Source: Alphaproteobacteria bacterium
Lineage (GTDB): Bacteria > Pseudomonadota > Alphaproteobacteria > Bin98
Assembly (NCBI GenBank): GCA_965261615.1
Contig: OZ253461.1
Location: 57,046-121,045 of the forward strand
DNA length: 64,000 bases
Direction: 5' to 3'
The number at the start of each line of letters is the position of its first letter. Position 1 is the first letter of the stretch. The notes beneath the pieces were generated by a model. That model was given only the letters and a program-made list of their open reading frames with translations. It did not search any database and had not been told where the DNA came from. The position numbers were made by a program, and so were the translations under genes. Positions 1,511-62,729 of this stretch are shown piece by piece.

Positions 1511-1606
1511 AACGCTCCTTATCCTGAATTGTACCATAACTGATCCAACATCTCAACTCCCGCCGCCCATCTCTTCCAAATATACGACAAAAGCTATCAA
1601 ACAGGA

Positions 1607-2485: not shown

Positions 2486-3869
2486 CCCACCTTATGGAAA
2501 CAGTCTCTGAAGCAAACTCTTTTGACACAGTTACGCCCAAAGGAGCCCCCAGAATAAGGGCCTCATACGCATAGCAAATCGTTGGCAATACAATCTGCGG
2601 GCCATACCGCACCCTTATCTTCGAAAAATCGTGGTTTGCCTCCACCTTGTCTATAGAGCCAACCAACACTGCCCGCAGATCTGCCAAAAAATCTTGCAGA
2701 CCATTTACATCTCTCGGCTGCACATGATTATCAAACACACTCTTTATTCGTTTAACCCTAAAGTCCAAACCAATGCATTGTTGCATCCATTCAAACCCCT
2801 TAGAGCACCCCATGAGGTATGATAGTACATAGTCTCTATCTAAAGGAACCTCCTCCCCCAAAAGAACAGCCTTCTCAGCATTTTTTGACCAAAACAGTAA
2901 CAGCGCATCATAAAAGTAATATAAATAGGGATCTTTGTCCTTTAGTTTGTGGCGCACAGTTTGGTCGTTAGCAGGCAAAATATAAAACATTGAGTGGGGC
3001 AAAATTGGCACAGCAGCCACCTTCAACGGCGTTGCATCCCCATCCAAAGGGCTCTTCACATCTAAAACTTCAGCATTTGGAAGAGACTGAAATGACGCAT
3101 CTATTGCATCCTCGTGCACACTCCAAAGCAAAAGAGAGTCTACCGCATGCTCTACTGCCATTGCAACAAATGTTGCAATGGGCTTTACTGTGTTAAAAAC
3201 AATAACACGCTTATTCCCAGAAAGTACACGATGCGACCCCACAGTCGGCTCTGGCAGTTCGGCCTCAAGCAACAAGTAACACTCTACAAAAGACTTAGTT
3301 GTTGTCAAAAACTTTGGAACAGAAAATAAGGCCTGAAATTTCTGAATACCCTCCATCTTTACCCCAAACAGCTCCTTTATAAAGCCACGGGATCGGGAGC
3401 TTTCCTTTGCAGCAGCAAACAAACTATTGTCCGTCAAGTTTTGTCCTGATAGGCACTGAAAGTCGCTGCGTGCTTTAAACAGATCAACCATAACTCCTGC
3501 CATATCCCGCTCTAACCCCACATACATCAGCTCATCATAAGATTTTGAGTAGCGCAGATAAATGGACTTGCCCTTTAGCTTCTGTGACTCTGGCAAAGGC
3601 TTGACCATTTTTGCTACGTGCCCGGCCTCTGCATCCAAACCCTTTGTTTTCAAAACCGCCACCAAAGACAGCACACAAGGCAAAATTGTATAAGGGTCAA
3701 GCCAACCAGGCAGTCGTCCACTAACCCAAGACACAGGAGATGCGGTGCCATTAAGCCAATCAGTCTCATTACCTGCCTGCAAACTTTGGGATCCCCACAA
3801 ACCAACAAACAGCACAAAACAAAACTTACCCATAATAGTGACTTTACTGAGGATAGAACAAAAAATCAA
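2466..3869 (-). CDS. Hypothetical secreted protein
   Basis: 467-aa ORF with a hydrophobic N-terminus (MGKFCFVLFVGLWGSQSLQAG; the true start may be ~3833). No recognisable catalytic motifs. Confidence 0.5.
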   Translation of the reverse strand: MIFCSILSKVTIMGKFCFVLFVGLWGSQSLQAGNETDWLNGTASPVSWVSGRLPGWLDPYTILPCVLSLVAVLKTKGLDAEAGHVAKMVKPLPESQKLKGKSIYLRYSKSYDELMYVGLERDMAGVMVDLFKARSDFQCLSGQNLTDNSLFAAAKESSRSRGFIKELFGVKMEGIQKFQALFSVPKFLTTTKSFVECYLLLEAELPEPTVGSHRVLSGNKRVIVFNTVKPIATFVAMAVEHAVDSLLLWSVHEDAIDASFQSLPNAEVLDVKSPLDGDATPLKVAAVPILPHSMFYILPANDQTVRHKLKDKDPYLYYFYDALLLFWSKNAEKAVLLGEEVPLDRDYVLSYLMGCSKGFEWMQQCIGLDFRVKRIKSVFDNHVQPRDVNGLQDFLADLRAVLVGSIDKVEANHDFSKIRVRYGPQIVLPTICYAYEALILGAPLGVTVSKEFASETVSIRWGDEESC

Positions 3870-4035
3870 CTCGACCTTAATAGGTGGAGGGTTTTCTCTG
3901 TCTTTTGTTGCGCTCGAACAACTTTTCTGACAACCTGTGCCAGAACGGCATCGACACGTCCATTTACACCTCTCTTATGAAAGCTATCTCTTGTGCCTAA
4001 TTGCCGCATCACGCTAATATGTTTTTGGAGGTTTA

Positions 4036-12354: not shown

Positions 12355-13638
12355 CTACATTTCAAAATAAACGTCTTGCATCATAGCTGCTATCTCGGAA
12401 CAGTCTTCTTCTAAGTGTGGTGCACTAAAAGCCACTATTATTTTTTTAGACTGCTCTAAGCTCAATGTAGCAAACTGCCCAACACTTTTTGTTATCCGAG
12501 GCAAATGCTCCTTTATAAAATCTTTACGTTGAAGGTTCTGAGTATAAGACCTTGCCTGATCTGCCAGCAAGAGAAGTATTATCTCATGATTTGCATCTTC
12601 GCGTTGGTTGTATATAGGTGCAAGGGCATCCATCACACTAAATATTTTGGTCAAAGATAAGGCACTTAGGTTTTTTAAATCCTCTGATTTTGCAAATGTG
12701 TAGTCCAGCCACTCCACACCTTCCTCTGGACGCACTTCCCTTATATATTGTTGCGCGACGTAAAGCTCCCTTTCCGCCCAATAAGAACCCACATCCTTCG
12801 CCTCTGCCCTCCAAAGATATACTATACCAGGCAAAACTCTATCAACCTGAGCATAAGCTACAAACCGCCCAAACTTCTTCTTCCACTCAACTTCTTGTAC
12901 CGTCTTGATGCAAGTTGCAAGCCTTGTGCCATCCTTCACGTCCTCACAAGTTAGAGCTCTCAATAATCCCCATAAAACAGAAGACAAGTGAACTGTTATC
13001 TTCTGATCTCTCCAAATCTCTACCCCCACCACTTCTTGCAAAGCGTCAGGCTTATTTTTCTGTTTCGCCACGTAGTCTATTAAAAATTGCATCGGTGGCG
13101 TCTGTGTAATTTCACAAACATGCTTGGCGACTTCACCCTCAAAATTTGGAAAGATTGGAGACAACCATGGATTCTGATTCAATGCCACACGAAACAATTG
13201 TATCTGCCCAATAGCAGAGCAAACCTTCGTCAACTGACGAAGAGAGACAGCAAGCTCCCATCCTGGCAACAAAGGCCCCGGAAGCTTAAGCTCCTTATTT
13301 TGCAGCAAGGCCTTTTGCAACCTATCACATGGTAGGCGATAGTTCTGTTCCCACTTGTTAAAGGAGGAGGGCAACACACCCACAGCGTCAGGAACCTCAT
13401 ATTGCAAAGCTGTCTGCACTATATCAAAAACTTGTCCCATATAACCATAAAATTGCTCCGTAAAGGCATCCGTTGCCAGAGCGTTGGATTCAAACAGATC
13501 CATTACCGTTAAAACTCTTTTTATTTGCGATAACATGTCACTAGAAAACACGTCACTGTGGAAAGACGCCGCTTTTGCTCCACACACGCACCATATCATT
13601 ATTATAGAAAAAATTCTCTGCATGTCATACTCTATCAC
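12355..13638 (-). CDS. Hypothetical protein (427 aa)
   Basis: Long ORF with a hydrophobic N-terminus and no recognisable motifs. Confidence 0.45.
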   Translation of the reverse strand: MIEYDMQRIFSIIMIWCVCGAKAASFHSDVFSSDMLSQIKRVLTVMDLFESNALATDAFTEQFYGYMGQVFDIVQTALQYEVPDAVGVLPSSFNKWEQNYRLPCDRLQKALLQNKELKLPGPLLPGWELAVSLRQLTKVCSAIGQIQLFRVALNQNPWLSPIFPNFEGEVAKHVCEITQTPPMQFLIDYVAKQKNKPDALQEVVGVEIWRDQKITVHLSSVLWGLLRALTCEDVKDGTRLATCIKTVQEVEWKKKFGRFVAYAQVDRVLPGIVYLWRAEAKDVGSYWAERELYVAQQYIREVRPEEGVEWLDYTFAKSEDLKNLSALSLTKIFSVMDALAPIYNQREDANHEIILLLLADQARSYTQNLQRKDFIKEHLPRITKSVGQFATLSLEQSKKIIVAFSAPHLEEDCSEIAAMMQDVYFEM

Positions 13639-13904
13639 AAAAACTTAAAAATTCCCATCCTAGCTTAAACAACCAGAGCACAAACCACATGTAGCGCCAC
13701 AGTCTTTTCCAAGTTGCGACCCATAAGCGTTGCAACTGCGCTTGCCCCGCACTTATATTAGGGAACAATGTTTGGTCGTCCTCTTAATTACTCCGCAGAC
13801 ACGTTTTGCAAAATTTTTCCACCCAAGCCTAGAGTTGCGCAACAACATTTTTCGTAACCGCCGGACCTTAATCAAAACGCTCCCGCAAACAGGCCATGCC
13901 GCTT

Positions 13905-18033: not shown

Positions 18034-18124
18034 GCTATATTTTACCCTATCCCTCTCACAAGAACAAGAGACGCCCTCTGCTTAGGCGCAGCAAAACTCA
18101 GCTCGCCTGTTTTGCATTACCGAA

Positions 18125-19768: not shown

Positions 19769-19967
19769 ATTACAGAATTATATCACACAAAAACTATCTC
19801 CTAAGATAACCGCCACACAATATGCCGCCCCCGCAAAGGAAGAGCACAACCTTGCCTGGCAAGGTGTGCCACGTGCTGTAGCACACGGTTAAAGGCTCCT
19901 ACCTCCACGCCGTTGTCACCTTCGCCTCAAAGGAAAAAACTCGCACACCACCGGAAATCAAGAGAAA

Positions 19968-20013: not shown

Positions 20014-20045
20014 TTCTAAAGGTTTCTGTGATATATTAAGTAACG

Positions 20046-20927
20046 ATGAATTTTATCCTTATTTTCACTCTATGCATATCAACCTACTCGATTGGCGCTA
20101 GTTCTCACGCAACCACTTCTATTTGGAATGAGTGGAGCGTGGAAGAGCTCGCCTACTTTTTGCAATTCAACAGTGCTATTGTAGAGAGTTGTTCAACCGC
20201 CTTGCAGTATAACTATAAAAGCACTCACGAGACAAGAATCAAGACAGCTCTAAGTCACTTACACCAGCAATACACCGAAGCAGTCGTATCTTGTGCTGAA
20301 GCATTTTATGACGCTTTATACCCCCAGGAGCACGCTAAGGCAAGTGACACAGAGCCTCTCAGCTATCAATCACTGCCCTCCTTCAGGAAAAGTGCGCTCT
20401 TCCAGAACGACAAGTTCCACCCCGAATTAGCCCGTTTAATAAAAAAGCATGCTAGCAAAGACGGCCCAACCTGGAACACCGACCTCCCCAGTGACTATTT
20501 TCCCTTCGCAATCCTCTCTGAAAATAGTTTTGGTAGCATTACACACATCACAATCCCACTTTATATTGCAAAAAAGGGCAGCCTTCAACAAACACACATA
20601 CACAAACATGACGCAGAGGTCTTGATCCCCACAGACAGCACATTAGCCTTAAGCAAACACGCACTACTGACCATAGAAACCGGAGCCATATTTATATTTG
20701 CAAAAATCGCCATTTCCCCTTTAACTAAAGCCCTGTCTCAGAAGCTATCTTTTACCGCATACGAAACAAAAAGATCGCCCACATCACCCTTAGAAGCACG
20801 TCCGCGTAGTCAACAGATAGAGCTCTGTCTCGCACAGCTCTATCAGCATCGCCCAAAGTCTTCTCCAAGCGCAACACCTGACCTTATAAGACCGGAGCCA
20901 CCCACAGCTACACTTATAAAATTTTAA
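20046..20927 (+). CDS. Family-A secreted paralog 1 (293 aa)
   Basis: Signal peptide MNFILIFTLCISTYSIGASSHA. Conserved blocks SCAEAFYDAL, LFQNDKFHPELARLIKKH, IPLYI, HIHKHDAEVLIPT, GAIFIFAKI, SFTAYETK, and a C-terminus IRPEPPTATLIKF. Confidence 0.7.
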   Translation: MNFILIFTLCISTYSIGASSHATTSIWNEWSVEELAYFLQFNSAIVESCSTALQYNYKSTHETRIKTALSHLHQQYTEAVVSCAEAFYDALYPQEHAKASDTEPLSYQSLPSFRKSALFQNDKFHPELARLIKKHASKDGPTWNTDLPSDYFPFAILSENSFGSITHITIPLYIAKKGSLQQTHIHKHDAEVLIPTDSTLALSKHALLTIETGAIFIFAKIAISPLTKALSQKLSFTAYETKRSPTSPLEARPRSQQIELCLAQLYQHRPKSSPSATPDLIRPEPPTATLIKF

Positions 20928-21084
20928 TAGATAATTTGGAAGGAAGCTACCCACCCTGTATACCCCCCAGATAAGGCCCCTACTGACAAGCCTTTTAGGT
21001 TTGAAAGCTTGCGCACACCGCCGGATATTCAGAGGCAGCGATAAAATAAGTTCCTTAACAGAGCTTTCTGTGATAAACTGCGTA

Positions 21085-22050
21085 ATGATGAATTTTACCC
21101 TTATTTTTACTCTATGCATATCAACCTACTCAATTGGCGCTAGTTCTCACACAACCACTTCTGTTTGGGATGGATGGGGCATAACAGAACTCGCAACCTT
21201 TTTGCGATGCAACAATCCTTGTCTCAAGTGTTTTTCAGCCGCCTTACAGTATAACTACAACAGTAAGCACGAAGACAATATCAAAGAGGCCCTAGGGCAC
21301 GTACACCGGCAGATCACCGAGGCGATAGAATCTTGCGCTAAAGCATTCTACAATGCTTTACGCCACCTCCCGGCCCCAAATACGGGAACCGCCTCTACTG
21401 AACACACCGCATTACTCTCCCGTCAACCATTGTCCGCCCATCAGTCATTGCCTGACCTCGAAGCAAGAGAGCTCTTCAAAAGTGGCATGATCCACCCAGA
21501 TTTAGATCGTTTAATAAAACAATATGCTAAAATACAGCCTTCTTGCTGGAACTCACGCCTCGACAACTTAACAAAATACTTTGAGTGCATAAAGTTCGAG
21601 CGAAGTAATGCTGAAAACATTTTACACATATCGCTTCCACTTTATATAGTAGACACGAACGACCATCAGTTAACACAAACACACATAAGCAAACGTGACG
21701 CAAACACCTTAATCCCCACAAACAGCACATTAGTTTTTAACTCAGACGCACTGCATGCCGCAAACACCGGAGCTATATTTGTATATGCAAAAATTACCGT
21801 TGACTCTCTATTGAGACTCTTGGGTAAGAAACTATCTTTTATCGCATATGAGACAAAAGCATCGCCGACATCACCTCTAAAAGCAAGACCAGAAGACGCA
21901 AAGTTTGCCCAAAGGATACAGGAAGAGTGCGAATACCTAACCCAACTCAGCACCCCCCCAAAGCACTCCCTCAAGGAAGCACCAGAGCAAGCATCGAACA
22001 CCACCAGGCAGGAGCCACCAACAGATACACTGATAGCCATTGACTCTTAG
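21085..22050 (+). CDS. Family-A secreted paralog 2
   Basis: MMNFTLIFTLCISTYSIGASSHT... with SCAKAFYNAL, LFKSGMIHPDLDRLIKQ, LPLYI, THISKRDANTLIPT, GAIFVYAKI, SFIAYETK, and a C-terminus TRQEPPTDTLIAIDS. Confidence 0.7.
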   Translation: MMNFTLIFTLCISTYSIGASSHTTTSVWDGWGITELATFLRCNNPCLKCFSAALQYNYNSKHEDNIKEALGHVHRQITEAIESCAKAFYNALRHLPAPNTGTASTEHTALLSRQPLSAHQSLPDLEARELFKSGMIHPDLDRLIKQYAKIQPSCWNSRLDNLTKYFECIKFERSNAENILHISLPLYIVDTNDHQLTQTHISKRDANTLIPTNSTLVFNSDALHAANTGAIFVYAKITVDSLLRLLGKKLSFIAYETKASPTSPLKARPEDAKFAQRIQEECEYLTQLSTPPKHSLKEAPEQASNTTRQEPPTDTLIAIDS

Positions 22051-22185
22051 ACAGGTTTCCCCCATACACCTCGTCCTGCAAGGGACGGCCTGTTCTCCAT
22101 GCGACATCTCGGGCATCACAACAAACCGCATATCCCAAAACACATATAAACTTGACTTTCTGTGCGTTTAAAGTATAATAAGGTT

Positions 22186-23151
22186 ATGATGAAATTTATG
22201 TTTATTGTTACACTACTCATTTCTACTTGCTCTGTCGCAGCTAGTATAGAGCCCCCCTCGTCAAAGTGGGAAGGGTGGGACCTACCAAATCTAGCTACAT
22301 TTTTAAAAACATTCGCAACTCCCGTTACGGCTCTTTCGCACGCCTTGGAGCATCCCAGTTTAGAGGCCTCCACTTCAGAGCAAGAGGGATGGGGTTTAGT
22401 CAATCTAACTACGAGTTTAAGACAATACGCACCTCCCATTAATTATCTGTTGGACTCACTGGGTTGCCCCAATCAGTCTAAGCACTCGAAAAACATAAAA
22501 GAAGCACTCACAGCTCAACTCCAGTGCACCACCCAGTATGTAGAATCCTGCGCCAAAGCATTCTATGCTTTATACCTCCAAACACAGTATAAAAACTCCT
22601 CTAATGAAACAACACCATTACTTACCGGTCAACCATTGATAGCCTTAGATGAGAGTGAACTCTTCAAAAATGCTGAGCTTCACCCAACACTCTCCAATTT
22701 AATTGAAGAGTACGCATGCCCAACGTTTACTGACGTCAAGCCACACCCCGCCCAATTAGGAGACCCCTTTCCTTGCGTAAGATACTGTAGCGATGCAAAG
22801 GCTCAAACCGCAAGCATCGGAGTCCCTCTGTATATATTAGAAAAACACATACTCTATCTACAAAAAACCCACCTAGATATACAAACGGCAGATGCCTTGA
22901 TTCCCACAAGCAGCCCTCCCGCAACTATCGAGAGCGCGCTCTGCTCAGTATACTCCGGTGCCGTATTTATATATGCAGTTGTCCCCATTGCGCCCCGCTC
23001 TTCCATATCGTTTATCGCATACGAAACACAACCTCATCCTGAATCACCTCTACATGAAATCTCTGAAAACCACACAGAATTCAGAAAAGCAATAGAGCGC
23101 TGTGTACAGTCCCAGCATCAGATTTATGTATCTCAATTGAACCACCAATAG
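22186..23151 (+). CDS. Family-A secreted paralog 3 (divergent)
   Basis: MMKFMFIVTLLISTCSVAAS... with SCAKAFYALY, LFKNAELHPTLSNLIEEY, VPLYI, GAVFIYAV, SFIAYETQ. Confidence 0.65.
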   Translation: MMKFMFIVTLLISTCSVAASIEPPSSKWEGWDLPNLATFLKTFATPVTALSHALEHPSLEASTSEQEGWGLVNLTTSLRQYAPPINYLLDSLGCPNQSKHSKNIKEALTAQLQCTTQYVESCAKAFYALYLQTQYKNSSNETTPLLTGQPLIALDESELFKNAELHPTLSNLIEEYACPTFTDVKPHPAQLGDPFPCVRYCSDAKAQTASIGVPLYILEKHILYLQKTHLDIQTADALIPTSSPPATIESALCSVYSGAVFIYAVVPIAPRSSISFIAYETQPHPESPLHEISENHTEFRKAIERCVQSQHQIYVSQLNHQ

Positions 23152-23347
23152 TTATACTTATCGGACTCTAATTGAATAGTCTGGGGCGTTTCCCCCCGTT
23201 TAATGGTGGGTACGCCCTAGATCAGGCTCCCACTGCCAAGCCTTTTTGATTTGAAAGCTTGCGCATGCTACCGAAAGGATGAGCAAATACAGCAAAAATA
23301 TAAACTAAGTAGGGGGCTAGCATTTTTTGTGATATAACTACTGTACG

Positions 23348-24187
23348 ATGAAATTTATACTTATATTTACACTATTCATATCAGGCTACTCTGTCGCAGC
23401 TAGTTCAGACGCATACTCTTCAGTGTGGACAGGATGGGGCGTCGCAGATCTCGCAACCTTTTTAAAATACAACAGTGGTTGTGTAAACAGTTTGTCAGTC
23501 GCCTTACAACATAAATATAACAGTGATCATGAATCAAACATCAAGGAAGCTCTAACGCACTTACACCAGCAATACACCGATGCAGTAGTGTCTTGCGCTA
23601 AAGCATTTTATGACTCTTTATTCCTCCAAGAGAAGACTACACTCAGCTACCAACCACTACCTTCCTTCAAGAAAAATGATCTTTTTAAAAACGACAAATT
23701 CCACCCGGACTTAGAGCGTTTAATAAAAAAACACAGCACAAAGAGTCCAGTGTGGAACCCTCGCCTCAACGAATTACAAGACTACTACCACCGATTAAGG
23801 GTCTATCGAAATACTTTGCGCGAGGTGACACACATCGAGATTCCACTTTATATAGAAAGCAAGAGCAACCATCAGTTAACGCACAGACACATAAGCAAAC
23901 GTGACGCAAGTGCCTTGAACCCGACATCAAGAACATTAGCTTTTACAAAAGATGCACAGCTTACCGCACACAACGGGGCTACATTTATATTTGCAAGAAT
24001 CGCCGTCCACCCTATGAGTTTTTCTCTGCGGTTTAAACGCCTTTCATTTACCGCATACGAAACACAATCTCAGCCTGAATCACCCCTAAAGGCAAGCCCA
24101 GAAGACATAGGGTTTTGCAAACTAGTCGCACAAGAGTGCGAAGCACTAGCGAAGCACAGCAAAACCACAAGTCGAATCTACAGATAG
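23348..24187 (+). CDS. Family-A secreted paralog 4
   Basis: MKFILIFTLFISGYSVAASSDA... with SCAKAFYDSL, LFKNDKFHPDLERLIKKH, IPLYI, RHISKRDASAL, GATFIFARI, SFTAYETQ. Confidence 0.7.
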   Translation: MKFILIFTLFISGYSVAASSDAYSSVWTGWGVADLATFLKYNSGCVNSLSVALQHKYNSDHESNIKEALTHLHQQYTDAVVSCAKAFYDSLFLQEKTTLSYQPLPSFKKNDLFKNDKFHPDLERLIKKHSTKSPVWNPRLNELQDYYHRLRVYRNTLREVTHIEIPLYIESKSNHQLTHRHISKRDASALNPTSRTLAFTKDAQLTAHNGATFIFARIAVHPMSFSLRFKRLSFTAYETQSQPESPLKASPEDIGFCKLVAQECEALAKHSKTTSRIYR

Positions 24188-24364
24188 GCACTTATAGGCA
24201 TTTAATTGGATAATTTGGGACATTTTCCCCCCGTTTAGTGGTGGGTACGCCCTAGATCAGGCTCCCATTGCCAAGCCTTTTAGCTTTGAAAGCTTCATAG
24301 GATGACAAGCACATCAAATACATTATGTGGACTTTTAGAGTGTTCTATGCTATAAGTTGTTACT

Positions 24365-25243
24365 ATGAAGCTGATCCTTATATTGACACTATTTATATCT
24401 ACCTATTCTATCGGCGCTAGTTCACACGCAGCCACTTCAGTTTGGAGTGGGTGGAACATAGAAGAGCTCGCCTCCTTTTTACAAAGCAAACAGGCTGTAC
24501 TAAAGAGTTGTTCAGCCGCCTTGCAGTATAACTATGAAAGTGATCACGGGCCAAACATCAAGGAAGCCCTAAGGCACTTACACAGGCAATACACCGAAGC
24601 CGTCGTATCTTGCGCTAAAGCATTTTATACTGCATGCACCCAAGAACAGGAGGGCAAATCTTCCACCACTCACAGCACGTCGTTACTCCCCCGCAAGTCA
24701 TTACCACGCTTAGAGGAAAAAGAACTCTTCAAAAATGGCAAGTTCCATCCCGCCTTAGCCCGCTTAATACAGGCACATGATATCCAAGAACACGAGTCTT
24801 GGAACGGGCGCCTCGACCACTTAACTGACCATTTCTCAGCCATGTCTTTCATTACAGATGGTTTTGACGACATTACGCACATCTGTATTCCACTTTACAT
24901 AATAGACAAGAGCAGCCACCGGTTAACGCAAACGCATATAAGCAAAAGTGACGCAAACATCTTGCTCTCCATAAAAAGCCCATTAGCCTTTAACAAAGAA
25001 GCGCTGCTTACCGCACACACCGGTGCCGTATTTATATATGCACAAATCGCCGTTAACTTTTGGCATAGAACCCTGTGTAAGCGCCTGTCGTTTATCGCAT
25101 ACGAAACACAACCTCATCCTGAATCACCTCTACAGGAAATCTCTGAAGACGACACAAATCGTCGCCAAGAAATAGAGAAAGAAGTCCAACATCTAAGAAA
25201 GATCAGAGACGCCTCAGAGCCACCCACAGATGCACTTAATTAA
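24365..25243 (+). CDS. Family-A secreted paralog 5
   Basis: MKLILILTLFISTYSIGASSHA... with SCAKAFYTAC, LFKNGKFHPALARLIQAH, IPLYI, THISKSDANIL, GAVFIYAQI, SFIAYETQ. Confidence 0.7.
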   Translation: MKLILILTLFISTYSIGASSHAATSVWSGWNIEELASFLQSKQAVLKSCSAALQYNYESDHGPNIKEALRHLHRQYTEAVVSCAKAFYTACTQEQEGKSSTTHSTSLLPRKSLPRLEEKELFKNGKFHPALARLIQAHDIQEHESWNGRLDHLTDHFSAMSFITDGFDDITHICIPLYIIDKSSHRLTQTHISKSDANILLSIKSPLAFNKEALLTAHTGAVFIYAQIAVNFWHRTLCKRLSFIAYETQPHPESPLQEISEDDTNRRQEIEKEVQHLRKIRDASEPPTDALN

Positions 25244-25284
25244 CTTCAGTTAGATTAAAATTTTCTGTGATATAATCTCACACG

Positions 25285-26235
25285 ATGAAATTTATACTCA
25301 TATTTACACTCTTCCTCTCAACTTATTCTATCGGTGCTAGTTCACATGCAGACGATTCTGTTTGGGAGGAATGGAGTGTAACAGAACTCGCCAATTTTTT
25401 GAGGGACAAAAGCAGTATGCTGAACTGCTTTTCAGTGGCCTTACAACGTAGCTATGCAAATGATCACGAGGATAATATCAAGCAAGCTCTGACACACCTG
25501 CATCAGAAACATACCCAAGCGTTAGAGTCGTGTGCTGGAGCGTTCTACCGTACTTTACTCCTCCAAAATCCAAATACGACAACAAACTCTTCTGCACACT
25601 CAACATTACTCCCCCGCAAACCACTGCCGCTCTTAGACGAAAGTGAGCTCTTCAAAAACGGTAAATTTCACCCCGATTTCGCTCGCTTAGTAAAAAAACA
25701 TTGCAGCAGAGAGCGCTCTACCTACAACACACGCCTTATCCACGAACAAGACTACCTGCCCTTCATTGCCTGCATCCGCAATATTTATGGCGAAATTATA
25801 TACATGGAAATCCCTCTTTATATAATAAACAAGAGCAGCCATCAATTCACACACACTCACATAAGCAAACGTAACGCAAAAACTTTAATCCCCAAAGAGG
25901 GCACACCGTCTTTTCTAAAAAGCGCTCTATCCACAACACACACCGGGGCCATATTTATATTTGCAAAAATCTCCTTTCGCTCTCTCTTTAACACTCTATC
26001 TTTTAGCGCATATGAAACAAAGGCATCACCTACTGCACGCCTCAAAGCACGACCAAAAGACAAGGAATTTAGCAAAACAATAGAGCAAGGGCTCGACTAT
26101 CTAGCAAAGATGTTAAAAAAAGCAGAAACATCGAGCCCTCAGAAACACCCAGGGCCTTCTCCCAGCACCACCTCTAAGAAAACACCTGACATCACAAGAC
26201 AAGAGCCACCAACAGGTGTACTTATAAACTTTTAG
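25285..26235 (+). CDS. Family-A secreted paralog 6
   Basis: MKFILIFTLFLSTYSIGASSHA... with SCAGAFYRTL, LFKNGKFHPDFARLVKKH, IPLYI, THISKRNAKTL, GAIFIFAKI, SFSAYETK, and a C-terminus ITRQEPPTGVLINF. Confidence 0.7.
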   Translation: MKFILIFTLFLSTYSIGASSHADDSVWEEWSVTELANFLRDKSSMLNCFSVALQRSYANDHEDNIKQALTHLHQKHTQALESCAGAFYRTLLLQNPNTTTNSSAHSTLLPRKPLPLLDESELFKNGKFHPDFARLVKKHCSRERSTYNTRLIHEQDYLPFIACIRNIYGEIIYMEIPLYIINKSSHQFTHTHISKRNAKTLIPKEGTPSFLKSALSTTHTGAIFIFAKISFRSLFNTLSFSAYETKASPTARLKARPKDKEFSKTIEQGLDYLAKMLKKAETSSPQKHPGPSPSTTSKKTPDITRQEPPTGVLINF

Positions 26236-26271
26236 TTGCCCCCCCCTTTTTCTCTGTGATACACTTATGCG

Positions 26272-27201
26272 ATGAAATTTATACTTATATTTACCCTATT
26301 CATATCAACCTATTCTATAGCCGCCAGTTCACACGCAAACGATTCTATTTGGGAGGGGTGGAGCACAACAGAAATCGCTTCCCTTTTAAGACGCACCATG
26401 CCTTGTGTAGACGCTGTTTCATCCGCCTTGCGGTATAACTATAAAAGTGATCATGAGACAAGCATCAAGAAAGCTCTAGAACACCTCCACCAGCAAAACA
26501 CCAAAATCGTAGAATCTTGTGCTCAAGCGCTCTACGAAACTTTACTTCTCCAAGAGCAAGCAAAGGCAAGCAAAACAACACCTCCCAGCAGCTATCAACC
26601 ACTGCCATCCTTCAAGAAAAGCGATCTCTTCAAAGCGGGCAAACTCCACCCCAGCTTATCTCGTTTCATAAAACAGCATGGGAACAAAGACACACATAAA
26701 TGGAACCCAAAACTCAACCACTTAAGAAACTATTTTAAGGTAGGGTTCACTCCAAACGCTAATGGCGAAATTATAGAAGTGGAACTCCCTCTTTATATAA
26801 TAAAAAAGAACGACTGTCAGTTAACGCAAACGCACATAAGCAAACGTGACGCAAACACCTTAATCTCCACAGACAGCACATTAGCCTTTGTCAAAGACGC
26901 TCTACAAACCACAGAAACAGGAGCCATATTTATATATGCTAAAATCACCCTTCAGCCTCTATTGAGACTGCTGAATGGAACCTGCTCTTTTTCCGCATAT
27001 GAAACAAAACCATCTCCCCTATCACGCCTAAAAGCACGCCCAAAAGACATACAATTTAGCAAAGAAATAGAGCAAGCGTGCGCAGATCTAGCAAAGATCA
27101 GCAAAAAAGAAATAAGTCGGCCCCCCAGCAGAACACCTGAGCCCACGACTGACGTCACAAGGCCAGAGCTACCAACCGGTATACTTATAACTTTTTGTTA
27201 G
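26272..27201 (+). CDS. Family-A secreted paralog 7
   Basis: MKFILIFTLFISTYSIAASSHA... with SCAQALYETL, LFKAGKLHPSLSRFIKQH, LPLYI, THISKRDANTL, GAIFIYAKI, SFSAYETK, and a C-terminus TRPELPTGILITFC. Confidence 0.7.
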   Translation: MKFILIFTLFISTYSIAASSHANDSIWEGWSTTEIASLLRRTMPCVDAVSSALRYNYKSDHETSIKKALEHLHQQNTKIVESCAQALYETLLLQEQAKASKTTPPSSYQPLPSFKKSDLFKAGKLHPSLSRFIKQHGNKDTHKWNPKLNHLRNYFKVGFTPNANGEIIEVELPLYIIKKNDCQLTQTHISKRDANTLISTDSTLAFVKDALQTTETGAIFIYAKITLQPLLRLLNGTCSFSAYETKPSPLSRLKARPKDIQFSKEIEQACADLAKISKKEISRPPSRTPEPTTDVTRPELPTGILITFC

Positions 27202-27230
27202 ATTTAAAATTTTCTGTGATACAGTACATC

Positions 27231-28160
27231 ATGAAATTTATACTTATATTTACCCTATTCATATCAACCTATTCTATCGGCGCTAGTTCACATGCAGCTA
27301 CTTCAGCCTGGGAAGGGTGGAGCGTAACAGAACTCGCAACATTTTTACAATACAACAGTCGTCGTATAAACGGCCTTTCAACTGCCTTACAATATAAATT
27401 TAACAGCACTCATGCGACAAACATCAAGGAAGCTCTAGCGAACTTGCACCGGCAATACACCGATGCGGTAGTGTCTTGCGCTAAAGCATTTTATGATGCT
27501 TTATTCCTCCAAGAAAAGACTGTACTCAGCTATCAACCACTACCTGCCTTCAAGAAAGATGATCTTTTTAAAAACGACAAATTCCACCCGGACTTAGAGC
27601 GTTTAATAAAAAAACACAGCACACAGAGCCCAATGTGGAACCCTTGCCTCGACGAATTACAAGACTACTTCAACCACGTAGGGGTACTCCATAATGACTC
27701 TCACGAGATAACATACATCGAAATTCCACTTTATATAGAAAGCAAGAGCAGCCATCAGCTAACACAAAAACATATAAGCAAACGTGACGTAAATGCCTTG
27801 AGCCCTACAGAACGCACATTAGCTTTTAACAAAGACGCTCTACGAACCACAGACACCGGCGCCGTATTTATATATGCAAAAATCGCGGTCCACCCTATGA
27901 AAATTCTGTTTAAGACCCTGTCTTTTATAGCATATGAAACAAAGCCATCTCCCACATCACCCCTAAAGGCACGCCCAAAAGACATGGCATTTTGCCAAAA
28001 AATGGAGAAAAAGTGCGCAGAGCTAGCAAAGCTCAGCAAAAAAATAAATGAGTCCGCCTCCCAGCAACAACCCGATCCTTCCTCAAAAAGCACAACCCCT
28101 GAGGAAACGTCTGACATCACAAGGCAGGAGCCACCAACAGGTATACTTGTAAACTTTTAG
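27231..28160 (+). CDS. Family-A secreted paralog 8
   Basis: MKFILIFTLFISTYSIGASSHA... with SCAKAFYDAL, LFKNDKFHPDLERLIKKH, IPLYI, KHISKRDVNAL, GAVFIYAKI, SFIAYETK, and a C-terminus ...KINESASQQQPDPSS...SDITRQEPPTGILVNF. Confidence 0.7.
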   Translation: MKFILIFTLFISTYSIGASSHAATSAWEGWSVTELATFLQYNSRRINGLSTALQYKFNSTHATNIKEALANLHRQYTDAVVSCAKAFYDALFLQEKTVLSYQPLPAFKKDDLFKNDKFHPDLERLIKKHSTQSPMWNPCLDELQDYFNHVGVLHNDSHEITYIEIPLYIESKSSHQLTQKHISKRDVNALSPTERTLAFNKDALRTTDTGAVFIYAKIAVHPMKILFKTLSFIAYETKPSPTSPLKARPKDMAFCQKMEKKCAELAKLSKKINESASQQQPDPSSKSTTPEETSDITRQEPPTGILVNF

Positions 28161-29300
28161 TTGGATAATCTGGGGCGTTATCCACCTTGTAATTAACAAG
28201 GTGGAGGCACCTTATATATGACCACACACTTACGGTTTTCATTTCACCCACTGCAAATGCAGAGACCCAACTATAGCCAAAACATAAACTAACTTGTCTT
28301 ACGGCCTGATCTATGATAATATCTCTCCATGATGCAACTTATACTTATATTTACCCTCTTCATATCAACCTATTCTGTGGCCGCCAGTTCACAGGAAGAC
28401 GGTTCTATTTGGGAGGGATGGAACACAGCAGATCTTGCCTCCTTTTTAAGACGCGTCGTGCCTTGTGTAGACGCTATTTCATCCGCCTTGCAGTATAACT
28501 ATAACAATAAGCATGAGCAACACATCAAGAAAGCTCTAACGCACCTCCACCAGCAAAACACCAAAGCCGTAGAGTCTTGTGCTCATGCGCTCTACGATGC
28601 TTTATTCCTCCAAGAGCAAGCCAAGGAAGGTGCAACAACACCTCTCAGCAGCTATCAACAACTGCCCTCCTTCAAGAAAAGTGAGCTCTTCAAAGCGGGC
28701 AAACTCCACCCCAGATTATCTCGTTTCATAAAACAGCATGGGAGCAACAAAAGACATCTGGGCAACCCACAACTCGACAGCTTAACGGACTATTTTTGTG
28801 GGGCATATTTCACTCCAAACGCCGCTGGCGAAATTATAGAAGTGGAAATCCCTCTTTATATAATAAAAAAGAACGACTGTCCATTAACGCAAACGCACAT
28901 AAGCACACACGACGCAAACACCTTAACCCCAGGCACATTAGTCTGGAACCAAGACGCTCTACTAACAACAGAAACCGGAGCCATATTTATATATGCAAAA
29001 ATCAACCTTCCACCTCTGTTGAGACTCTTTAGTGGAACCTGCTCTTTTGCTGCATATGAAACAAAACCATCTCCCACACCACGCCTAAAAGCAAGCCCAG
29101 AAGGCATAAAATTCAGCCAGAAAATAGAGCAAAAGTGCGCATATCTAGCAACGCTCAGCATAGAACAAAGATCAGCAGCACAAAGATCAATGAGTCGGCC
29201 CCCCAGCCACAACCAGACCCTTCCTCAAGAAGCATAACTCCTGAGCAAACGTCTGACATCACAAGGCAGGAGCCACCAACAGGTATACTTATAGAATTTT
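28161..29300. repeat. Copy 1 of a ~1.14 kb near-identical tandem duplication (intergenic element plus a family-A gene)
   Basis: 28161-29300 is ~99% identical to 29301-~30440. The two begin ttggataatctggggcgttatccaccttgtaattaacaaggtgg and ttgaataatctggggcgttatccacctttaattaacaaggtgg respectively. Confidence 0.8.
28329..29237 (+). CDS. Family-A secreted paralog 9, C-terminus frameshifted relative to its duplicate
   Basis: MMQLILIFTLFISTYSVAASSQ... The protein is identical to the first module of 29470..32319 until ~29160. There a ~16-nt deletion inside the 84-bp linker repeat shifts the frame. The ORF then ends ...SMSRPPSHNQTLPQEA*, while the canonical family C-terminus (SDITRQEPPTGILIEF*) lies in another frame and ends at ~29301. 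Confidence 0.6.
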   Translation: MMQLILIFTLFISTYSVAASSQEDGSIWEGWNTADLASFLRRVVPCVDAISSALQYNYNNKHEQHIKKALTHLHQQNTKAVESCAHALYDALFLQEQAKEGATTPLSSYQQLPSFKKSELFKAGKLHPRLSRFIKQHGSNKRHLGNPQLDSLTDYFCGAYFTPNAAGEIIEVEIPLYIIKKNDCPLTQTHISTHDANTLTPGTLVWNQDALLTTETGAIFIYAKINLPPLLRLFSGTCSFAAYETKPSPTPRLKASPEGIKFSQKIEQKCAYLATLSIEQRSAAQRSMSRPPSHNQTLPQEA

Positions 29301-30440
29301 AGTTGAATAATCTGGGGCGTTATCCACCTTTAATTAACAAGGTGGAGACACCTTATATATGACCACACACTTACGGTTTTCATTTCACCCACTGCAAATG
29401 CAGAGACCCAACTATAGCCAAAACATAAACTAACTTGTCTTACGGCCTGATCTATGATAAAATCTCCCCATGATGCAACTTATACTTATATTTACCCTCT
29501 TCATATCAACCTATTCTGTGGCCGCCAGTTCACAGGAAGACGGTTCTATTTGGGAGGGATGGAACACAGCAGATCTTGCCTCCTTTTTAAGACGCGTCGT
29601 GCCTTGTGTAGACGCTATTTCATCCGCCTTGCAGTATAACTATAACAATAAGCATGAGCAACACATCAAGAAAGCTCTAACGCACCTCCACCAGCAAAAC
29701 GCCAAAGCCGTAGAGTCTTGTGCTCATGCGCTCTACGATGCTTTATTCCTCCAAGAGCAAGCCAAGGAAGGTGCAACAACACCTCTCAGCAGCTATCAAC
29801 AACTGCCCTCCTTCAAGAAAAGTGAGCTCTTCAAAGCGGGCAAACTCCACCCCAGATTATCTCGTTTCATAAAACAGCATGGGAGCAACAAAAGACATCT
29901 GGGCAACCCACAACTCGACAGCTTAACGGACTATTTTTGTGGGGCATATTTCACTCCAAACGCCGCTGGCGAAATTATAGAAGTGGAAATCCCTCTTTAT
30001 ATAATAAAAAAGAACGACTGTCCATTAACGCAAACGCACATAAGCACACACGACGCAAACACCTTAACCCCAGGCACATTAGTCTGGAACCAAGACGCTC
30101 TACTAACAACAGAAACCGGAGCCATATTTATATATGCAAAAATCAACCTTCCACCTCTGTTGAGACTCTTTAGTGGAACCTGCTCTTTTGCTGCATATGA
30201 AACAAAACCATCTCCCACACCACGCCTAAAAGCAAGCTCAGAAGGCATAAAATTCAGCCAGAAAATAGAGCAAAATTGCGCATATCTAGCAACGCTCAGC
30301 ACAAAGATAAATGAGTCAGCTCCCCAGCAACAACCAGACCCTTCAAGCATAGAGCAAGAGTGTGCAGACCAAAAGATCAGCAGCACAAAGATCAATGAGT
30401 CGGCCCCCCAGCCACAACCAGACTCTTCTATTTGGGCGGG
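29301..30440. repeat. Copy 2 of the ~1.14 kb tandem duplication
   Basis: See copy 1 at 28161..29300. A third, partial copy follows at ~30428-31230 (tctatttgggcgggatggaacacagcagatcttgcc... matches 28403 onward). Confidence 0.8.
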
Positions 30441-32438: not shown

Positions 32439-33140
32439 TTATTCTGCAGGAACGCCATTCTCCCACCAGTTCTTATATTTGCTTTTCTCATCCTTTCCCA
32501 TATGCCGAAGTATCTTCTGAGCGGTGACTTTACCACCCCGACTAGCATATGGCTCAAGAGTCTCTTGCGCATACTGAAGTCGCCACAAACCAAGCTCACA
32601 CTTCTTAGCATACTCTTCACCAGCTGCACAAACACCAGGATCCAGCGGTTCCCCTTTAGTAGCAGCCTGAGCCCCCTTTATAACATCATCATAATCACAC
32701 AAAAAAGAATGCTCTTTTGCTAGCATCAACCGAAAATCTGCCAAATCTTTTGCTAGTACACCGCCAAACCCAGTCTTTAATTGACTTAACAAGCTAAAAG
32801 CCTGTAGGCGGCCTAAGTTTCCTTCCTCATAGATTTTCTGGGCAGAGTCTTTGTCTATATCCTTGTCAAGCACGCTCACATATAGCCGTCTTAAGCTAAC
32901 GGCACTTTCTGTTACAGAACGAGCTGACTCCCATTTTTCACATAACTTATTATAGGCATCAACTACTTCCTTATCGGCCCACCTTAGGTTGATTTCCAGG
33001 CTTTTAAGAACACCATACACTTCCGCAGTCGTGCTCACTTTAAACGCCCCCGCACCAGCGGGGCGCGCCTGATCAGACGCAAGAGCGCTCAAAACACACA
33101 AAAAAACACTGATCCTCCCCCACATAAACTCTGCTAACAT
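32439..33140 (-). CDS. Hypothetical secreted protein (233 aa)
   Basis: Hydrophobic N-terminus (ISVFLCVLSALASDQA). No motifs recognised. Confidence 0.45.
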   Translation of the reverse strand: MLAEFMWGRISVFLCVLSALASDQARPAGAGAFKVSTTAEVYGVLKSLEINLRWADKEVVDAYNKLCEKWESARSVTESAVSLRRLYVSVLDKDIDKDSAQKIYEEGNLGRLQAFSLLSQLKTGFGGVLAKDLADFRLMLAKEHSFLCDYDDVIKGAQAATKGEPLDPGVCAAGEEYAKKCELGLWRLQYAQETLEPYASRGGKVTAQKILRHMGKDEKSKYKNWWENGVPAE

Positions 33141-33214
33141 ATCATAGGTTGGGGAGGCAGCGCGATACTCAGAAGTTATCAGTCTGCTTTAAGGCCGGCA
33201 CTGCTCTTTCAATC

Positions 33215-34102: not shown

Positions 34103-34258
34103 GTAATCAGTGTACGGGTCTTTTAGCCATATGTCTAGTCAAAACTCTGCTAAGAACACAGTTCTTTCAGTAAAAATATAGCGTAAACTAAACATTTCCA
34201 ACCAAAATATCTTTATGGGAGCAAATCTTAATTTTCTATATCAACAAAATATGCTACA

Positions 34259-36657: not shown

Positions 36658-36710
36658 ATTTCACTTTATCAAAAATAATCTGTCGTGTATACTGTAGTAG
36701 AGAAAACCCT

Positions 36711-38452: not shown

Positions 38453-39646
38453 CTATACAAGCAAAATACTCCAGTTTTTCTGATAGCCCGCCAGTATGCC
38501 TCTTGGCCCCACAACATGCTTTGAAAGGTCTTTACTCATAACAAACGCCAGAGAACCATCCAAACTCTTCCCTGACCGAGCCACAACCTCCTGCCATGTC
38601 CTTACCAGATCGCCCTGCACTAAAAGATTTACATCCTTAAACACGTTAGGTGTACTCCAGCCTCTTTGCTGATCCACAAAAAAGAGTAGCATCTCACCTT
38701 CCTCACACCCTGACCAAAAGGAAAGCTCTTGACTCGCCGGCACTAAACCAAAGCTGTTGCGCAAAATAGCTACTTGCACAGGCTCATAGCGATACTGAGT
38801 AAGCGGTACACTTATCTTTTTTTCGACACCATCACGCTTTACTATAAACTCAAATTGAGTAAGGTGCGTTGATACAGGGATTTGCCAAGCCTCGCTGATT
38901 TTTTTACCATTTACTTGCAAAATTACATCCCCCACTTCCAGCTCAGGTGGTGCAAATCTTTCTTTTGCAGATAAAATCACCTCTTTTTCTAATTTGCACG
39001 CCTTATTTTTGCTGAAAGAAAGAAACGCACAGCTAGGCAGTACATATTCTTTTTGCTCAACATATGTGCCCTCTACTTTAGCAATTGCACGTTTTAACAA
39101 CGCACGCATGTGCGCTTGCAACACACACACGCCTCCACTAACAACCATAGCAAACACCTCGTCACGCACATTACACAATAGTGTTCCTAAAGAAAACTGA
39201 CCGCTTGTTTCATGCAAATATACAGTTGCTAAGGGACTTAGCATAATAGGCACAGAAGGATCGCGACTCACTACAGCCTGCCTCCCCTTTAATGTTGTTC
39301 CATCCTCGCTAATAGACACTGGATGTAATAACTCGTCAGACGAACCTAAGTAAGCGCTCTGCACATTTGACAGCGCTTCCTCTTTTTTCACCCGCAGAAT
39401 ACAAATACCATGCAAACGATCTACCGCCACAACGTCACAAGGCGATTTGTTCACAGAAAAGCTATCACAACCAAAAGGCCCTTGGTTGTAAGGCGCCAAC
39501 ACCAAACCTTTGTTTTTATCTACACACACCCCAGAAAAAAATAAGTGCCCTCCATTACGGTCATGCTGACTTTGAATCAAAACTAATGATCGAGCCGCCC
39601 ATAACGTCCCTGAACATAAAAAAAGTAACAAAATTTTCTTAATCAT
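38453..39646 (-). CDS. HtrA/DegP-like paralog P1 (trypsin fold + PDZ); catalytic triad degenerate
   Basis: Signal/lipobox-like N-terminus MIKKILLLFLCSG. The Asp region (VVAVDRLHGICILRV, cf. DLAVLRV) is kept, but the His block and the GxSGG block are lost (HETSGQFSLGTLLCNVRDEVFAMVVSGG). PDZ-like LEVGDVILQVNGKKI. Confidence 0.6.
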   Translation of the reverse strand: MIKKILLLFLCSGTLWAARSLVLIQSQHDRNGGHLFFSGVCVDKNKGLVLAPYNQGPFGCDSFSVNKSPCDVVAVDRLHGICILRVKKEEALSNVQSAYLGSSDELLHPVSISEDGTTLKGRQAVVSRDPSVPIMLSPLATVYLHETSGQFSLGTLLCNVRDEVFAMVVSGGVCVLQAHMRALLKRAIAKVEGTYVEQKEYVLPSCAFLSFSKNKACKLEKEVILSAKERFAPPELEVGDVILQVNGKKISEAWQIPVSTHLTQFEFIVKRDGVEKKISVPLTQYRYEPVQVAILRNSFGLVPASQELSFWSGCEEGEMLLFFVDQQRGWSTPNVFKDVNLLVQGDLVRTWQEVVARSGKSLDGSLAFVMSKDLSKHVVGPRGILAGYQKNWSILLV

Positions 39647-52003: not shown

Positions 52004-52327
52004 TTAATCTTTCCTTGGAATCTGAAAAGATATCCCACAGCCACAACCCGTCTCGACCTTTGGGTTATCAAAGACAAAGTGTGAGTGCATCACCTCTTCC
52101 ACAAAATTCAATGTTCCACCCTCCAGAAAAGCATGACACCTCCTAGCTATCACTATATTTTTACCGTCTGGACCTTCCACCAAAATATCATCTTCTTGCT
52201 GCTCACAAACCTTGAACACATATTGAAACCCATGACACCCGCCACTTTCTATCCCCACACGAAAAACTTGCCCGCTGCTTGTAATACTACCCACCCGATT
52301 CCAAGCACTCTCTGTGACCTTAATCAT
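52004..52327 (-). CDS. erpA: Iron-sulfur cluster insertion protein ErpA/IscA (HesB family)
   Basis: GGCHGFQY...CGCGISF C-terminal Cys motif in a 107-aa protein. Confidence 0.85.
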   Translation of the reverse strand: MIKVTESAWNRVGSITSSGQVFRVGIESGGCHGFQYVFKVCEQQEDDILVEGPDGKNIVIARRCHAFLEGGTLNFVEEVMHSHFVFDNPKVETGCGCGISFQIPRKD

Positions 52328-53450: not shown

Positions 53451-53771
53451 TAATTATACTCAAAATTTCATCAATTGCGAAAATCTAGCCACAAAGATGC
53501 CCTCTAACAAACACAGACTCCTTAATCAGACAAGATCCACCACGCTGCACAACCCTTTATGACACACCTCTCTATGGTTTTTAGTATATCCCGCACCTAA
53601 TGCAAATTCCGCATAACGTCCACATGCTATCCTTCAGCGTACTATAGAGCTCTCTAGCACTCACCAACATCCCAGCCGAAGAGGTTTAATGCAGCCTCTT
53701 ACAATACACTTGTACTCTTAGTCTCACAAACTAGAAGTTGCCAAGACAACGCAAAACATATATAATTTACC

Positions 53772-54878: not shown

Positions 54879-54884
54879 TGCACC

Positions 54885-55712: not shown

Positions 55713-55813
55713 AATGCACCTCTGGCTAATGGTCCTTAAAACTCATCAATTTTGCAGAAAGATAGCCGTATATTAAAAGTTTGACAATGGACACAGGTGT
55801 GATATAATTTTAT

Positions 55814-56629: not shown

Positions 56630-56819
56630 CCCCTCTCTCAAGCAACAGTTGCCAACATAACACCCTCAACCCCAAGAGGTTTCTCGAAAAAGGGTTTTCA
56701 CCATCATGCACAACCGTCTCTTTTTAATATTGAGCGCCGAACACCTGTCAAGACTTATCACGCATTAGCAAAAGTGATATAACCCTTGATTTTAATTAAA
56801 AAATTATATATAATTTCCT

Positions 56820-58402: not shown

Positions 58403-58430
58403 ATTGTATCATAAGTCAAACGTCTTGCAA
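58403..58430 (-). promoter_or_regulatory. Sigma-70-like promoter TTGCAA-N16-TACAAT with AGGAGA RBS, upstream of 57958..58383
   Basis: Minus strand: ttgcaa (58425-58430), a 16-nt spacer, tacaat (58403-58408), AGGAGA (58391-58396), then ATGATG at 58378-58383. Confidence 0.55.
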
Positions 58431-60718: not shown

Positions 60719-61023
60719 ACTTACCCCTATATCCTCTATATTTATCACAGAACAAATAATTTGTCACTAAAATATCTTTTGTGTTAGTGGTCTCTTTTTG
60801 CTCAATTAGGTCATGCACCATTTTAGCTTTGAGGCCAAATGCGCCCAACTGAACTCCCCTTTTACAACAAAAATCGACCAATAAAAACCCACTGCAAACT
60901 TTATTACAGCGGGTCTTACAAAGTAAGGAGTAAAGGCAGCCTATGGCTCTATCTTCGAGCATTAGCTCGTCAAATAGTTCCAGCGCTTCACAAACCTTAC
61001 TTAGAGTGTGGTACAAGTGTACT

Positions 61024-61356: not shown

Positions 61357-61535
61357 AATTTTTCTCCTTGTTAGGATTGTATTACAAAAAAAACCATTTG
61401 TCATTAAAAAATAATTTTTTGAGTTAGCGCTCTCTTTTTGCTCAATTAGGCCATGCAAGTTTTTAGACTTGAGGCCAAATGCATCCAACTACACGCACCT
61501 GTTTACAACTTGCAACAAAAATCAACCAATAAAAA

Positions 61536-62615: not shown

Positions 62616-62729
62616 AAATCTCCTTGCTGTCATTATACCACACAAACACCCCTCTTGCAAACAAAAATGCGCTGGACCTCTGCGCCATACACTACCCACG
62701 AACCATAACGCTCTTATCAAGCATCTGCT

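Follow-up and report, generated by a model that had tools for sequence, protein, structure and literature searches.

In a 64,000-nt stretch of an alphaproteobacterial genome (positions 57,046 to 121,045 of contig OZ253461.1, assembly GCA_965261615.1; we call the whole stretch the window), a short box lies almost against the ATG of 20 genes (Table 1). Its consensus is TTTyTRTGaTAnnnT, which has the form of a sigma-70-type extended -10 element. It is very probable, in our view, that the box is an ordinary promoter -10 element that gives leaderless or near-leaderless mRNAs. The box would be the core of a housekeeping promoter of the sigma-70 type, with a TAnnnT hexamer, a TG or TRTG extension, a T-rich tract, and a -35 element that is usually weak or absent. 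The hexamer ends 5-10 nt before the ATG in three gene families (A, B, and C), and the same is true of at least seven genes that are unrelated to them. Given that RNA polymerase normally starts about 7 nt past the -10, transcription would begin either at the first base of the ATG or 1-4 nt ahead of it. This would leave the mRNA no space for a Shine-Dalgarno (SD) sequence, and translation would follow the leaderless route, with the ribosome binding an AUG at the 5' terminus. Every gene in the tandem array of family A would have its own promoter and its own ribosome entry point within the same ~25 nt, which would explain why the box survives in intergenic spacers of just 29-41 nt. We infer all three steps (the use of the box by RNA polymerase, the position of the start, and leaderless translation) from the sequence.

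We name genes by the position of their start codon. Family A has about ten paralogs in tandem (20046-32319, + strand), whose proteins are 279-349 amino acids long, plus one three-unit fusion, and begin with a signal peptide of the MKFILIFTLF type. Family B (genes 54885 and 55814) is related to family A, while genes 53772 and 56820 form a second family, family C. None of the 10 proteins that we tested had a Pfam domain. We found no relatives of family A in the GTDB species genomes or in the JGI metagenomes, and its only matches in the protein database were the window's own genes, which all lie on one 1,465,401-bp contig, and one 1-kb ENA metagenome contig (L081). So our comparative evidence for family A comes from one ortholog. 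The window is 44% G+C, and the nearest relatives of its tyrosyl-tRNA synthetase are from Alphaproteobacteria, at no more than 47% identity.

The box resembles a promoter

We aligned the upstream regions of the ten family A genes and of the ortholog in L081 (11 regions). T-12 and A-11 are invariant in all 11, and there is little or no variation at T-19, T-17, T-15, and G-14. The conserved stretch has an abrupt onset about 25 nt ahead of the ATG, and there is no alignment upstream of about -22. The least conserved part is the discriminator, or the 5-9 nt from the hexamer to the ATG, which varies in length and has a pairwise identity of 0.14-0.33. The combination of base-specific conservation with a variable discriminator points to a -10 element with a TG (TRTG) extension, and not to a ribosome site or a dyad operator. 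TRTG (T-17 R T-15 G-14) is a known extension of -10 elements (bioRxiv 10.1101/2025.01.23.634641).

Among all 20 box-adjacent sites, the TA is always present, T-7 is present at 18, and a TG lies one base upstream of the hexamer at 14 (as compared to 5 of 11 leadered promoter candidates). At most sites, the TG is preceded by T and a purine (TRTG) and by a T tract. A -35-like hexamer (at least 4 of 6 matches to TTGACA) lies 16-18 nt upstream at 11 of the 20 sites, versus 12% for TANNNT across the window as a whole (p = 5e-6), and if the families are collapsed then the count is 6 of 11 (p = 9e-4). The better -35 elements (TTGACT, TTGCCA, TAGACA, and TTGATT) tend to occur at sites without the TG, but this is a trend only (p = 0.17).

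The boxes that were quoted in the preliminary description are where it placed them: for example, TTTCTGTGATATAAT-ctcacacg-ATG is at 25262-25287, and there are degenerate copies at 20046 (TTTCTGTGATATATT), 21085 (TTTCTGTGATAAACT), 23348 (TTTTTGTGATATAAC), 26272 (TCTCTGTGATACACT), 27231 (TTTCTGTGATACAGT), and 55814 (GTGTGATATAAT). Similarly, TATATAAT does lie 5 nt upstream of both 53772 and 56820. The box was described as a perfect extended -10 (TGTGATATAAT), which is accurate for 25285 and 55814 (and also for 19768(-)) but not for any of the other sites that were cited. At 22186, part of the box is retained as TTTCTGTG, but the actual -10 appears to be another TATAAT, 7 nt further downstream, with TTGACT as its -35. 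In other words, the ancestral box is broken and there is a new TTGACT-16-TATAAT 6 nt from the ATG. The ortholog in L081 lacks TGTGA and has TATATT 5 nt before its ATG. In both cases, promoter function seems to have been kept through sequence turnover.

The box is enriched at a fixed distance from start codons

Within the window, the box is enriched relative to start codons, as the preliminary description would lead one to expect. There are 3 exact copies of TGTGATATAAT, and there are 8 copies if up to one mismatch is allowed (1.05 expected). The longer motif TTTYTRTGATA, again with up to one mismatch, has 32 matches versus 7.7 expected. The core TGNTANNNT has 159 copies over the two strands. 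We considered open reading frames (ORFs) of at least 100 amino acids and counted the offset from the end of TGNTANNNT to the first ATG. The core ends 5, 6, or 8 nt from the first ATG in 11 of 76 of these ORFs, and it is almost never found at the remaining offsets between 0 and 60 nt. As controls, we used 400 permutations of the same letters: these had an average of 0.94 matches at 5-8 nt before an ATG, versus 11 for TGNTANNNT, and the few controls with high scores overlapped the same motif. Even the plain TANNNT shows peaks at offsets 5 (10 cases) and 6 (8 cases), versus about 2 cases per offset elsewhere.

Other features in keeping with leaderless transcripts

Counting from the end of the hexamer, the A of the ATG falls at base 6 or 7 at 13 of the 20 sites and at base 8 to 11 at the other 7. 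In a set of 49 bacterial species, transcription starts are centred 7 bp past the -10 (bioRxiv 10.1101/2025.01.23.634641). For 28329, 29470, and 56820, the A of the ATG is the sole purine in the expected start window. Where the spacing in family A is 8-9 nt, an A occupies position 6-7, 3 nt ahead of the ATG (ACGATG or ACTATG); three paralogs and L081 carry an ATG in place of this triplet (ATGATG). So the predicted 5' ends of the family A mRNAs are AUG... or ACG-AUG....

The box-adjacent genes have little potential to pair with the ribosome's anti-SD: the mean SD pairing energy is -0.8 kcal/mol and the median is +0.1 (n = 20), versus a mean of -8.0 for other genes in the window (n = 28). Many genes in the window, among them the internal genes of the operon at 38453-46303, have a GGAGG-like SD motif upstream, and to judge from these sequences, the organism clearly uses the SD where a leader exists. 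All 20 box-adjacent genes start with ATG. Also, over the first 40 nt, the minimum free energy averages -1.16 kcal/mol for the box-adjacent genes, versus -3.26 kcal/mol for the others (p = 4e-4, although the sites are not independent because of paralogy). In Caulobacter, the determinants of leaderless translation are the identity of the AUG, accessibility of the 5' end, and a leader length of zero (PMC8459731). As a control from outside of the window, we checked the tyrS loci of other alphaproteobacteria and found TANNNT 4-10 nt upstream in 1 of 41, but this is a weak control as those genomes are GC-rich.

The box is not specific to the gene families

The preliminary description treated the layout as a trait of the gene families. 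Families A, B, and C do have it, and family A has three more instances than had been listed (24365, 28329, and 29470), but it is not confined to them: seven of the ~20 genes with the leaderless layout lie outside of the three families (13623(-), 19768(-), 36657(-), 33125(-), 18033(-), 34102(-), and 3833(-)). From these sequences, the leaderless layout seems to be used by this genome in general.

The box also occurs farther upstream of genes that have an SD (Table 1). One of these, 60718(-), had been listed as having the box near the ATG, but the box is ~21-24 nt away with an SD-like AGGGG in between, so this gene belongs with its paralogs 61356 and 62612 in the leadered class. The presence of the box ahead of leadered genes and of housekeeping genes implies that it is a general promoter signal, and not a family-specific operator.

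In a number of SD-bearing genes (1510, 4036, 14976, 49711, 53438, 58383, 59171, 61356, and 62612), the putative -10 precedes the start codon by just 14-22 nt. The 5' untranslated regions of these genes are predicted to begin nearly at the SD, which would make for a minimal leader of ~10-16 nt.

Weighing the interpretation

Several points weigh against reading the box as a promoter for leaderless mRNAs. The transcription starts are predicted from the DNA sequence. Ten of the 20 box-adjacent cases are paralogs from one family and a few more are related, so the cases are not independent. Within family A, the box columns are only modestly above neutral: the mean pairwise identity is 0.76, versus 0.59 at 4-fold degenerate sites. 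Two members of the family have C or G at -7 instead of T, but this fits with the weaker conservation at the 3' end of the -10 in Alphaproteobacteria (bioRxiv 10.1101/2025.01.23.634641). Five of the sites have a spacing of 8-10 nt and are predicted to yield leaders of 1-4 nt, and in Caulobacter, each added leader nucleotide cuts leaderless translation about two-fold (PMC8459731). A generic scan of the array for -35/-10 pairs found no overall enrichment (24 versus 20.9), but such a scan overlooks extended -10 promoters because it demands a -35. Finally, in the comparison of SD pairing, the anti-SD was taken as canonical, as the 16S rRNA gene lies outside of the window, and the start codons of the comparison genes were picked by eye.

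We view the conservation of the box within the family as supportive of a promoter but not decisive, and we give it less weight than the evidence from other genes. Overall, the proposal in the preliminary description of an extended -10 promoter with leaderless or near-leaderless transcripts has held up: it is supported, indirectly, by the conservation, the TG and -35 elements, the spacing, the absence of an SD, the exclusive use of ATG, and the low 5' structure, and also by the reuse of the box ahead of short leaders that contain an SD.

A broader idea is that leaderless initiation is the main mode for the first genes of transcription units in this probably host-associated alphaproteobacterium (at least a third of genes), that it relies on a Firmicute-like TRTG extended -10, and that the lineage-specific arrays of secreted proteins are preferentially leaderless, as a translational class that can be controlled separately. 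This is possible, but we are inclined to doubt it. High proportions of leaderless genes (a third or more) are otherwise reported for Deinococcus-Thermus and Actinobacteria.

Alternative explanations

The box might instead act in the mRNA, as an A/U-rich ribosome-binding or enhancer site that does not depend on an SD (for instance, one that binds ribosomal protein S1), on longer and partly polycistronic transcripts from upstream promoters. The AT-rich composition and the location of the box would both suit an enhancer of the S1 type. Read-through is plausible as well. The three shortest spacers (25243/25285, 26235/26272, and 27201/27231) are 29-41 nt, are essentially the box alone, and lack the ~100-nt hairpin element that is described below. 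Also, intrinsic terminators are not enriched in the array (16 versus 14.4). Read-through transcripts across 24365-28160 are therefore possible. But if the box were a ribosome site, it is hard to see why its conserved positions are base-specific (TG, T-12, A-11, and mostly T-7) while the bases adjoining the ATG are the least conserved, or why -35-like hexamers are enriched at the correct distance. Furthermore, the box is found ahead of genes that have their own SD, where such a role is impossible, and the internal genes of the clear operons in the window carry strong SDs. So we consider a ribosome site to be improbable. Read-through would be compatible with a promoter at each gene: because internal genes on read-through transcripts would lack an SD, we reason that a private leaderless promoter for each gene would be sensible.

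We think it very unlikely that the box has no function and was simply copied with the highly conserved 5' ends of the genes in recent duplications or gene conversions. It is true that neutral sites are short of saturation among the family A paralogs (4-fold identity is 0.59, and all nine paralogs agree at 5 of 31 such sites), that the adjoining DNA that encodes the signal peptide is very similar between paralogs, and that the upstream regions of 28329 and 29470 are near-identical. However, conservation stops sharply upstream of the box and has a gap between the box and the ATG, which is unlike a simple conversion tract. Synonymous identity is not raised in the first 22 codons (0.54-0.62, versus 0.59-0.68 elsewhere), and genes that are not homologous have the same motif at the same distance. 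We had also considered a special constraint on the 5' coding region, but we rejected it because the synonymous sites there are no more conserved.

Least likely of all, and rejected here, is the other suggestion in the preliminary description, of an operator at which a regulator shared by the families, such as a protein of the CRP/FNR type, would recognise TGTGA. Such an operator might overlap a promoter. Operators of the CRP/FNR family have the form TGTGA-N6-TCACA, and the box resembles them in the TGTGA pentamer only. The pentamer and the upstream TTTC(T) tract are conserved somewhat past the minimal need for TGn, and in 25285, a TCACA does occur 7 nt after the TGTGA, but this spacing is N7 and no other paralog has a second half-site. 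Matches to TGTGA-N6-TCACA with up to 2 mismatches are not enriched (32 versus 27.5 expected), and none of them is at a box. The motif also precedes unrelated genes, including those for ribosomal protein L21 and a malic-enzyme-like protein, which argues against a restricted regulon. L081 lacks the TGTGA, yet its -10 is kept at the same distance, and T-17 R T-15 G-14 matches the known TRTG extension (bioRxiv 10.1101/2025.01.23.634641).

Comparison to known systems

A TANNNT hexamer that precedes the start codon by about 12 nt is a signature of leaderless genes in bacteria (Zheng et al. 2011, PMC3160421). This signature was found in 207 of 953 bacterial genomes and in 2 of 117 alphaproteobacterial genomes, where it accounts for 4.7-7.8% of genes (PMC3160421). 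Our genes resemble these "TA-led" genes in that the first T of TAnnnT is 11-16 nt before the ATG, there is no SD, and there is a positional peak; the interpretation, of a promoter that doubles as an initiation signal, is also the same. Unlike in that survey, the layout is present in ~20 of the ~65 genes in our 64-kb window, and most of them have the TG or TRTG, although this may partly reflect the tandem family. The putative leaderless genes seem to be unusually dense for an alphaproteobacterium, but a single window that is enriched for a tandem family does not give a genome-wide rate.

In Caulobacter crescentus, ~10% of mRNAs are leaderless (385, versus 3632 leadered; Bharmal et al. 2021, PMC8459731). 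Caulobacter belongs to the same class (Alphaproteobacteria), and the mRNAs that we predict would share its strong preference for AUG (95.6% there and 20 of 20 here), weak 5' structure, and lack of an SD. On the other hand, Caulobacter is GC-rich, its starts were measured rather than inferred, and several of our sites predict leaders of 1-4 nt, which are penalised in Caulobacter (PMC8459731). The box also resembles extended -10 promoters such as E. coli galP1 (PMC3488240) and the "-16 region" of Firmicutes (bioRxiv 10.1101/2025.01.23.634641): these have TG one base upstream and T-17/R-16, and the -35 is weak or dispensable when the TG is present. But those promoters normally precede ordinary leaders, and TRTG has been described as typical of Firmicutes and not of Alphaproteobacteria (bioRxiv 10.1101/2025.01.23.634641).

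Our finding is a further case of a known arrangement with a textbook mechanism, and its density is the sole unusual aspect. If our interpretation is correct, then it would fix the true start codons and the promoters of an array of orphan secreted proteins, and each tandem copy would be an independent minimal expression unit. It would supply an example from Alphaproteobacteria in which leaderless genes seem to be dense. It would also mean that gene finders and models of ribosome-binding sites that are tuned to the SD will miscall starts in this genome. So its value is for annotation and for comparative genomics, and it brings no new concept.

Table 1. Putative -10 boxes next to an ATG, putative -10 boxes with short leaders, and copies of the ~100-nt element. 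Distances are from the box to the ATG.
Element	Position	Strand	Context
tgtgaTATATT	20027..20037	+	extended -10, 8 nt before ATG 20046, family A
tgtgaTAAACT	21069..21079	+	extended -10, 5 nt before ATG 21085 (ATGATG), family A
TTGACT-16-TATAAT	22152..22179	+	full promoter, 6 nt before ATG 22186, family A; ancestral TTTCTGTG now in spacer
tgtgaTATAAC	23328..23338	+	extended -10, 9 nt before ATG 23348, family A
tatgcTATAAG	24346..24356	+	extended -10, 8 nt before ATG 24365, family A
tgtgaTATAAT	25266..25276	+	perfect extended -10, 8 nt before ATG 25285, family A
tgtgaTACACT	26255..26265	+	extended -10, 6 nt before ATG 26272, family A; 36-nt intergenic spacer
tgtgaTACAGT	27215..27225	+	extended -10, 5 nt before ATG 27231, family A; 29-nt spacer
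tatgaTAATAT	28312..28322	+	extended -10, 6 nt (pyrimidines only) before ATG 28329, family A
tatgaTAAAAT, TTGTCT -35	29453..29463	+	6 nt (pyrimidines only) before ATG 29470, three-unit family A fusion
TTGCCA-17-TATAAT	53733..53766	+	5 nt before ATG 53772, family C
TTGACA-16-TGaTATAAT	55776..55808	+	consensus promoter, 5 nt before ATG 55814, family B
TTGATT-17-TATAAT	56781..56814	+	5 nt (pyrimidines only) before ATG 56820, family C
tgtgaTATAAT (perfect)	19777..19787	-	8 nt before ATG 19768, unrelated 547-aa orphan secreted protein
tgtgaTAGAGT	13629..13639	-	5 nt before ATG 13623, unrelated orphan secreted protein
tttgaTAAAGT	36663..36673	-	5 nt before ATG 36657, malic-enzyme-like housekeeping gene
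TTGTTC-17-TAAAAT	18039..18072	-	5 nt before ATG 18033, tyrosyl-tRNA synthetase
TAGACA-17-TACACT	34109..34142	-	6 nt before ATG 34102, orphan secreted protein
TTGATT-17-TAAAGT	3841..3874	-	7 nt before ATG 3833, orphan secreted protein
tatgaTATGTT	33136..33146	-	10 nt before ATG 33125; predicted leader ~4 nt
tgtggTATAAT	62632..62642	-	19 nt before ATG 62612, AAGGAG between; short SD-containing leader
tgtaaTACAAT	61376..61386	-	19 nt before ATG 61356, AAGGAG between; leadered paralog of 60718
GTTCTGTGATAAATA	60739..60753	-	~21 nt (from end of -10 hexamer) to 24 nt (from end of TGTGATA core) before ATG 60718, SD-like AGGGG between
tatgaTACAAT	58403..58413	-	19 nt before ATG 58383, AGGAG between; duplicate at 59191-59201 before 59171
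tatggTACAAT	1528..1538	-	17 nt before ATG 1510 (ribosomal protein L21), AAGGAG between
~100-nt element	20928-21020		follows family A stop codon
~100-nt element	23152-23265		follows family A stop codon
~100-nt element	24188-24295		follows family A stop codon
~100-nt element	28161-28258		follows family A stop codon

Other observations

Directly after the stop codons of four family A genes (20927, 23151, 24187, and 28160), there is a conserved element of ~100 nt, with the sequence GGATAATTTGGG...CCAAGCCTTTTAGNTTTGAAAGCTTG. Two of the copies fold as long hairpins (z = -4.1 and -2.0), and part of the element also precedes the family A ortholog in L081. The element may serve as a terminator, or it may be a repeat of the extragenic type.

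The last gene of the array (29470-32319, 949 amino acids) is composed of three fused family A units, with tandem peptide repeats (SSIEQECADQKISSTKINESAPQPQPD) as the linkers. In its promoter region and its first unit, this gene is near-identical to its neighbour 28329, which suggests a recent duplication. In family B, 54885 lacks the box and starts 6 nt past the stop codon of 53772-54878 (54876-54887); an AGGAG is present but is misplaced, 19 nt upstream. This gene may be translated by termination-reinitiation coupling.

The prfB (RF2) homolog (52320-53450, - strand) was a candidate for a leaderless gene, as it appeared to start at a TTG beside a TATAAT, but we dropped it because the GTG at 53438, with a GAGAGG SD, is a likelier start. 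This GTG lies downstream of the TATAAT. The gene is one unbroken frame of ~370 codons. In many bacteria, prfB has a programmed +1 frameshift, which appears to be absent here.

On the - strand at 38453-46303, there are five tandem paralogs of ~400-470 amino acids that overlap or abut, each with a clear SD, and they look like a single operon. Sequence motifs suggest that these may be secreted proteins that are trypsin-like or PDZ-like. At 62220-62270 (- strand), an ATG with a good SD (AGGAGG) encodes MFKRSLYLNLS..., which is an N-terminus typical of the neighbouring family of small secreted proteins, but it is out of frame with the long ORF at 61603-62220. A pseudogene with a frameshift might account for this, as might an error in the sequence.

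Finally, the GC skew is between -0.15 and -0.35 in each 2-kb bin of the window (1-64000), regardless of the strand of the genes. For a bacterial chromosome, the two strands are unusually asymmetric.

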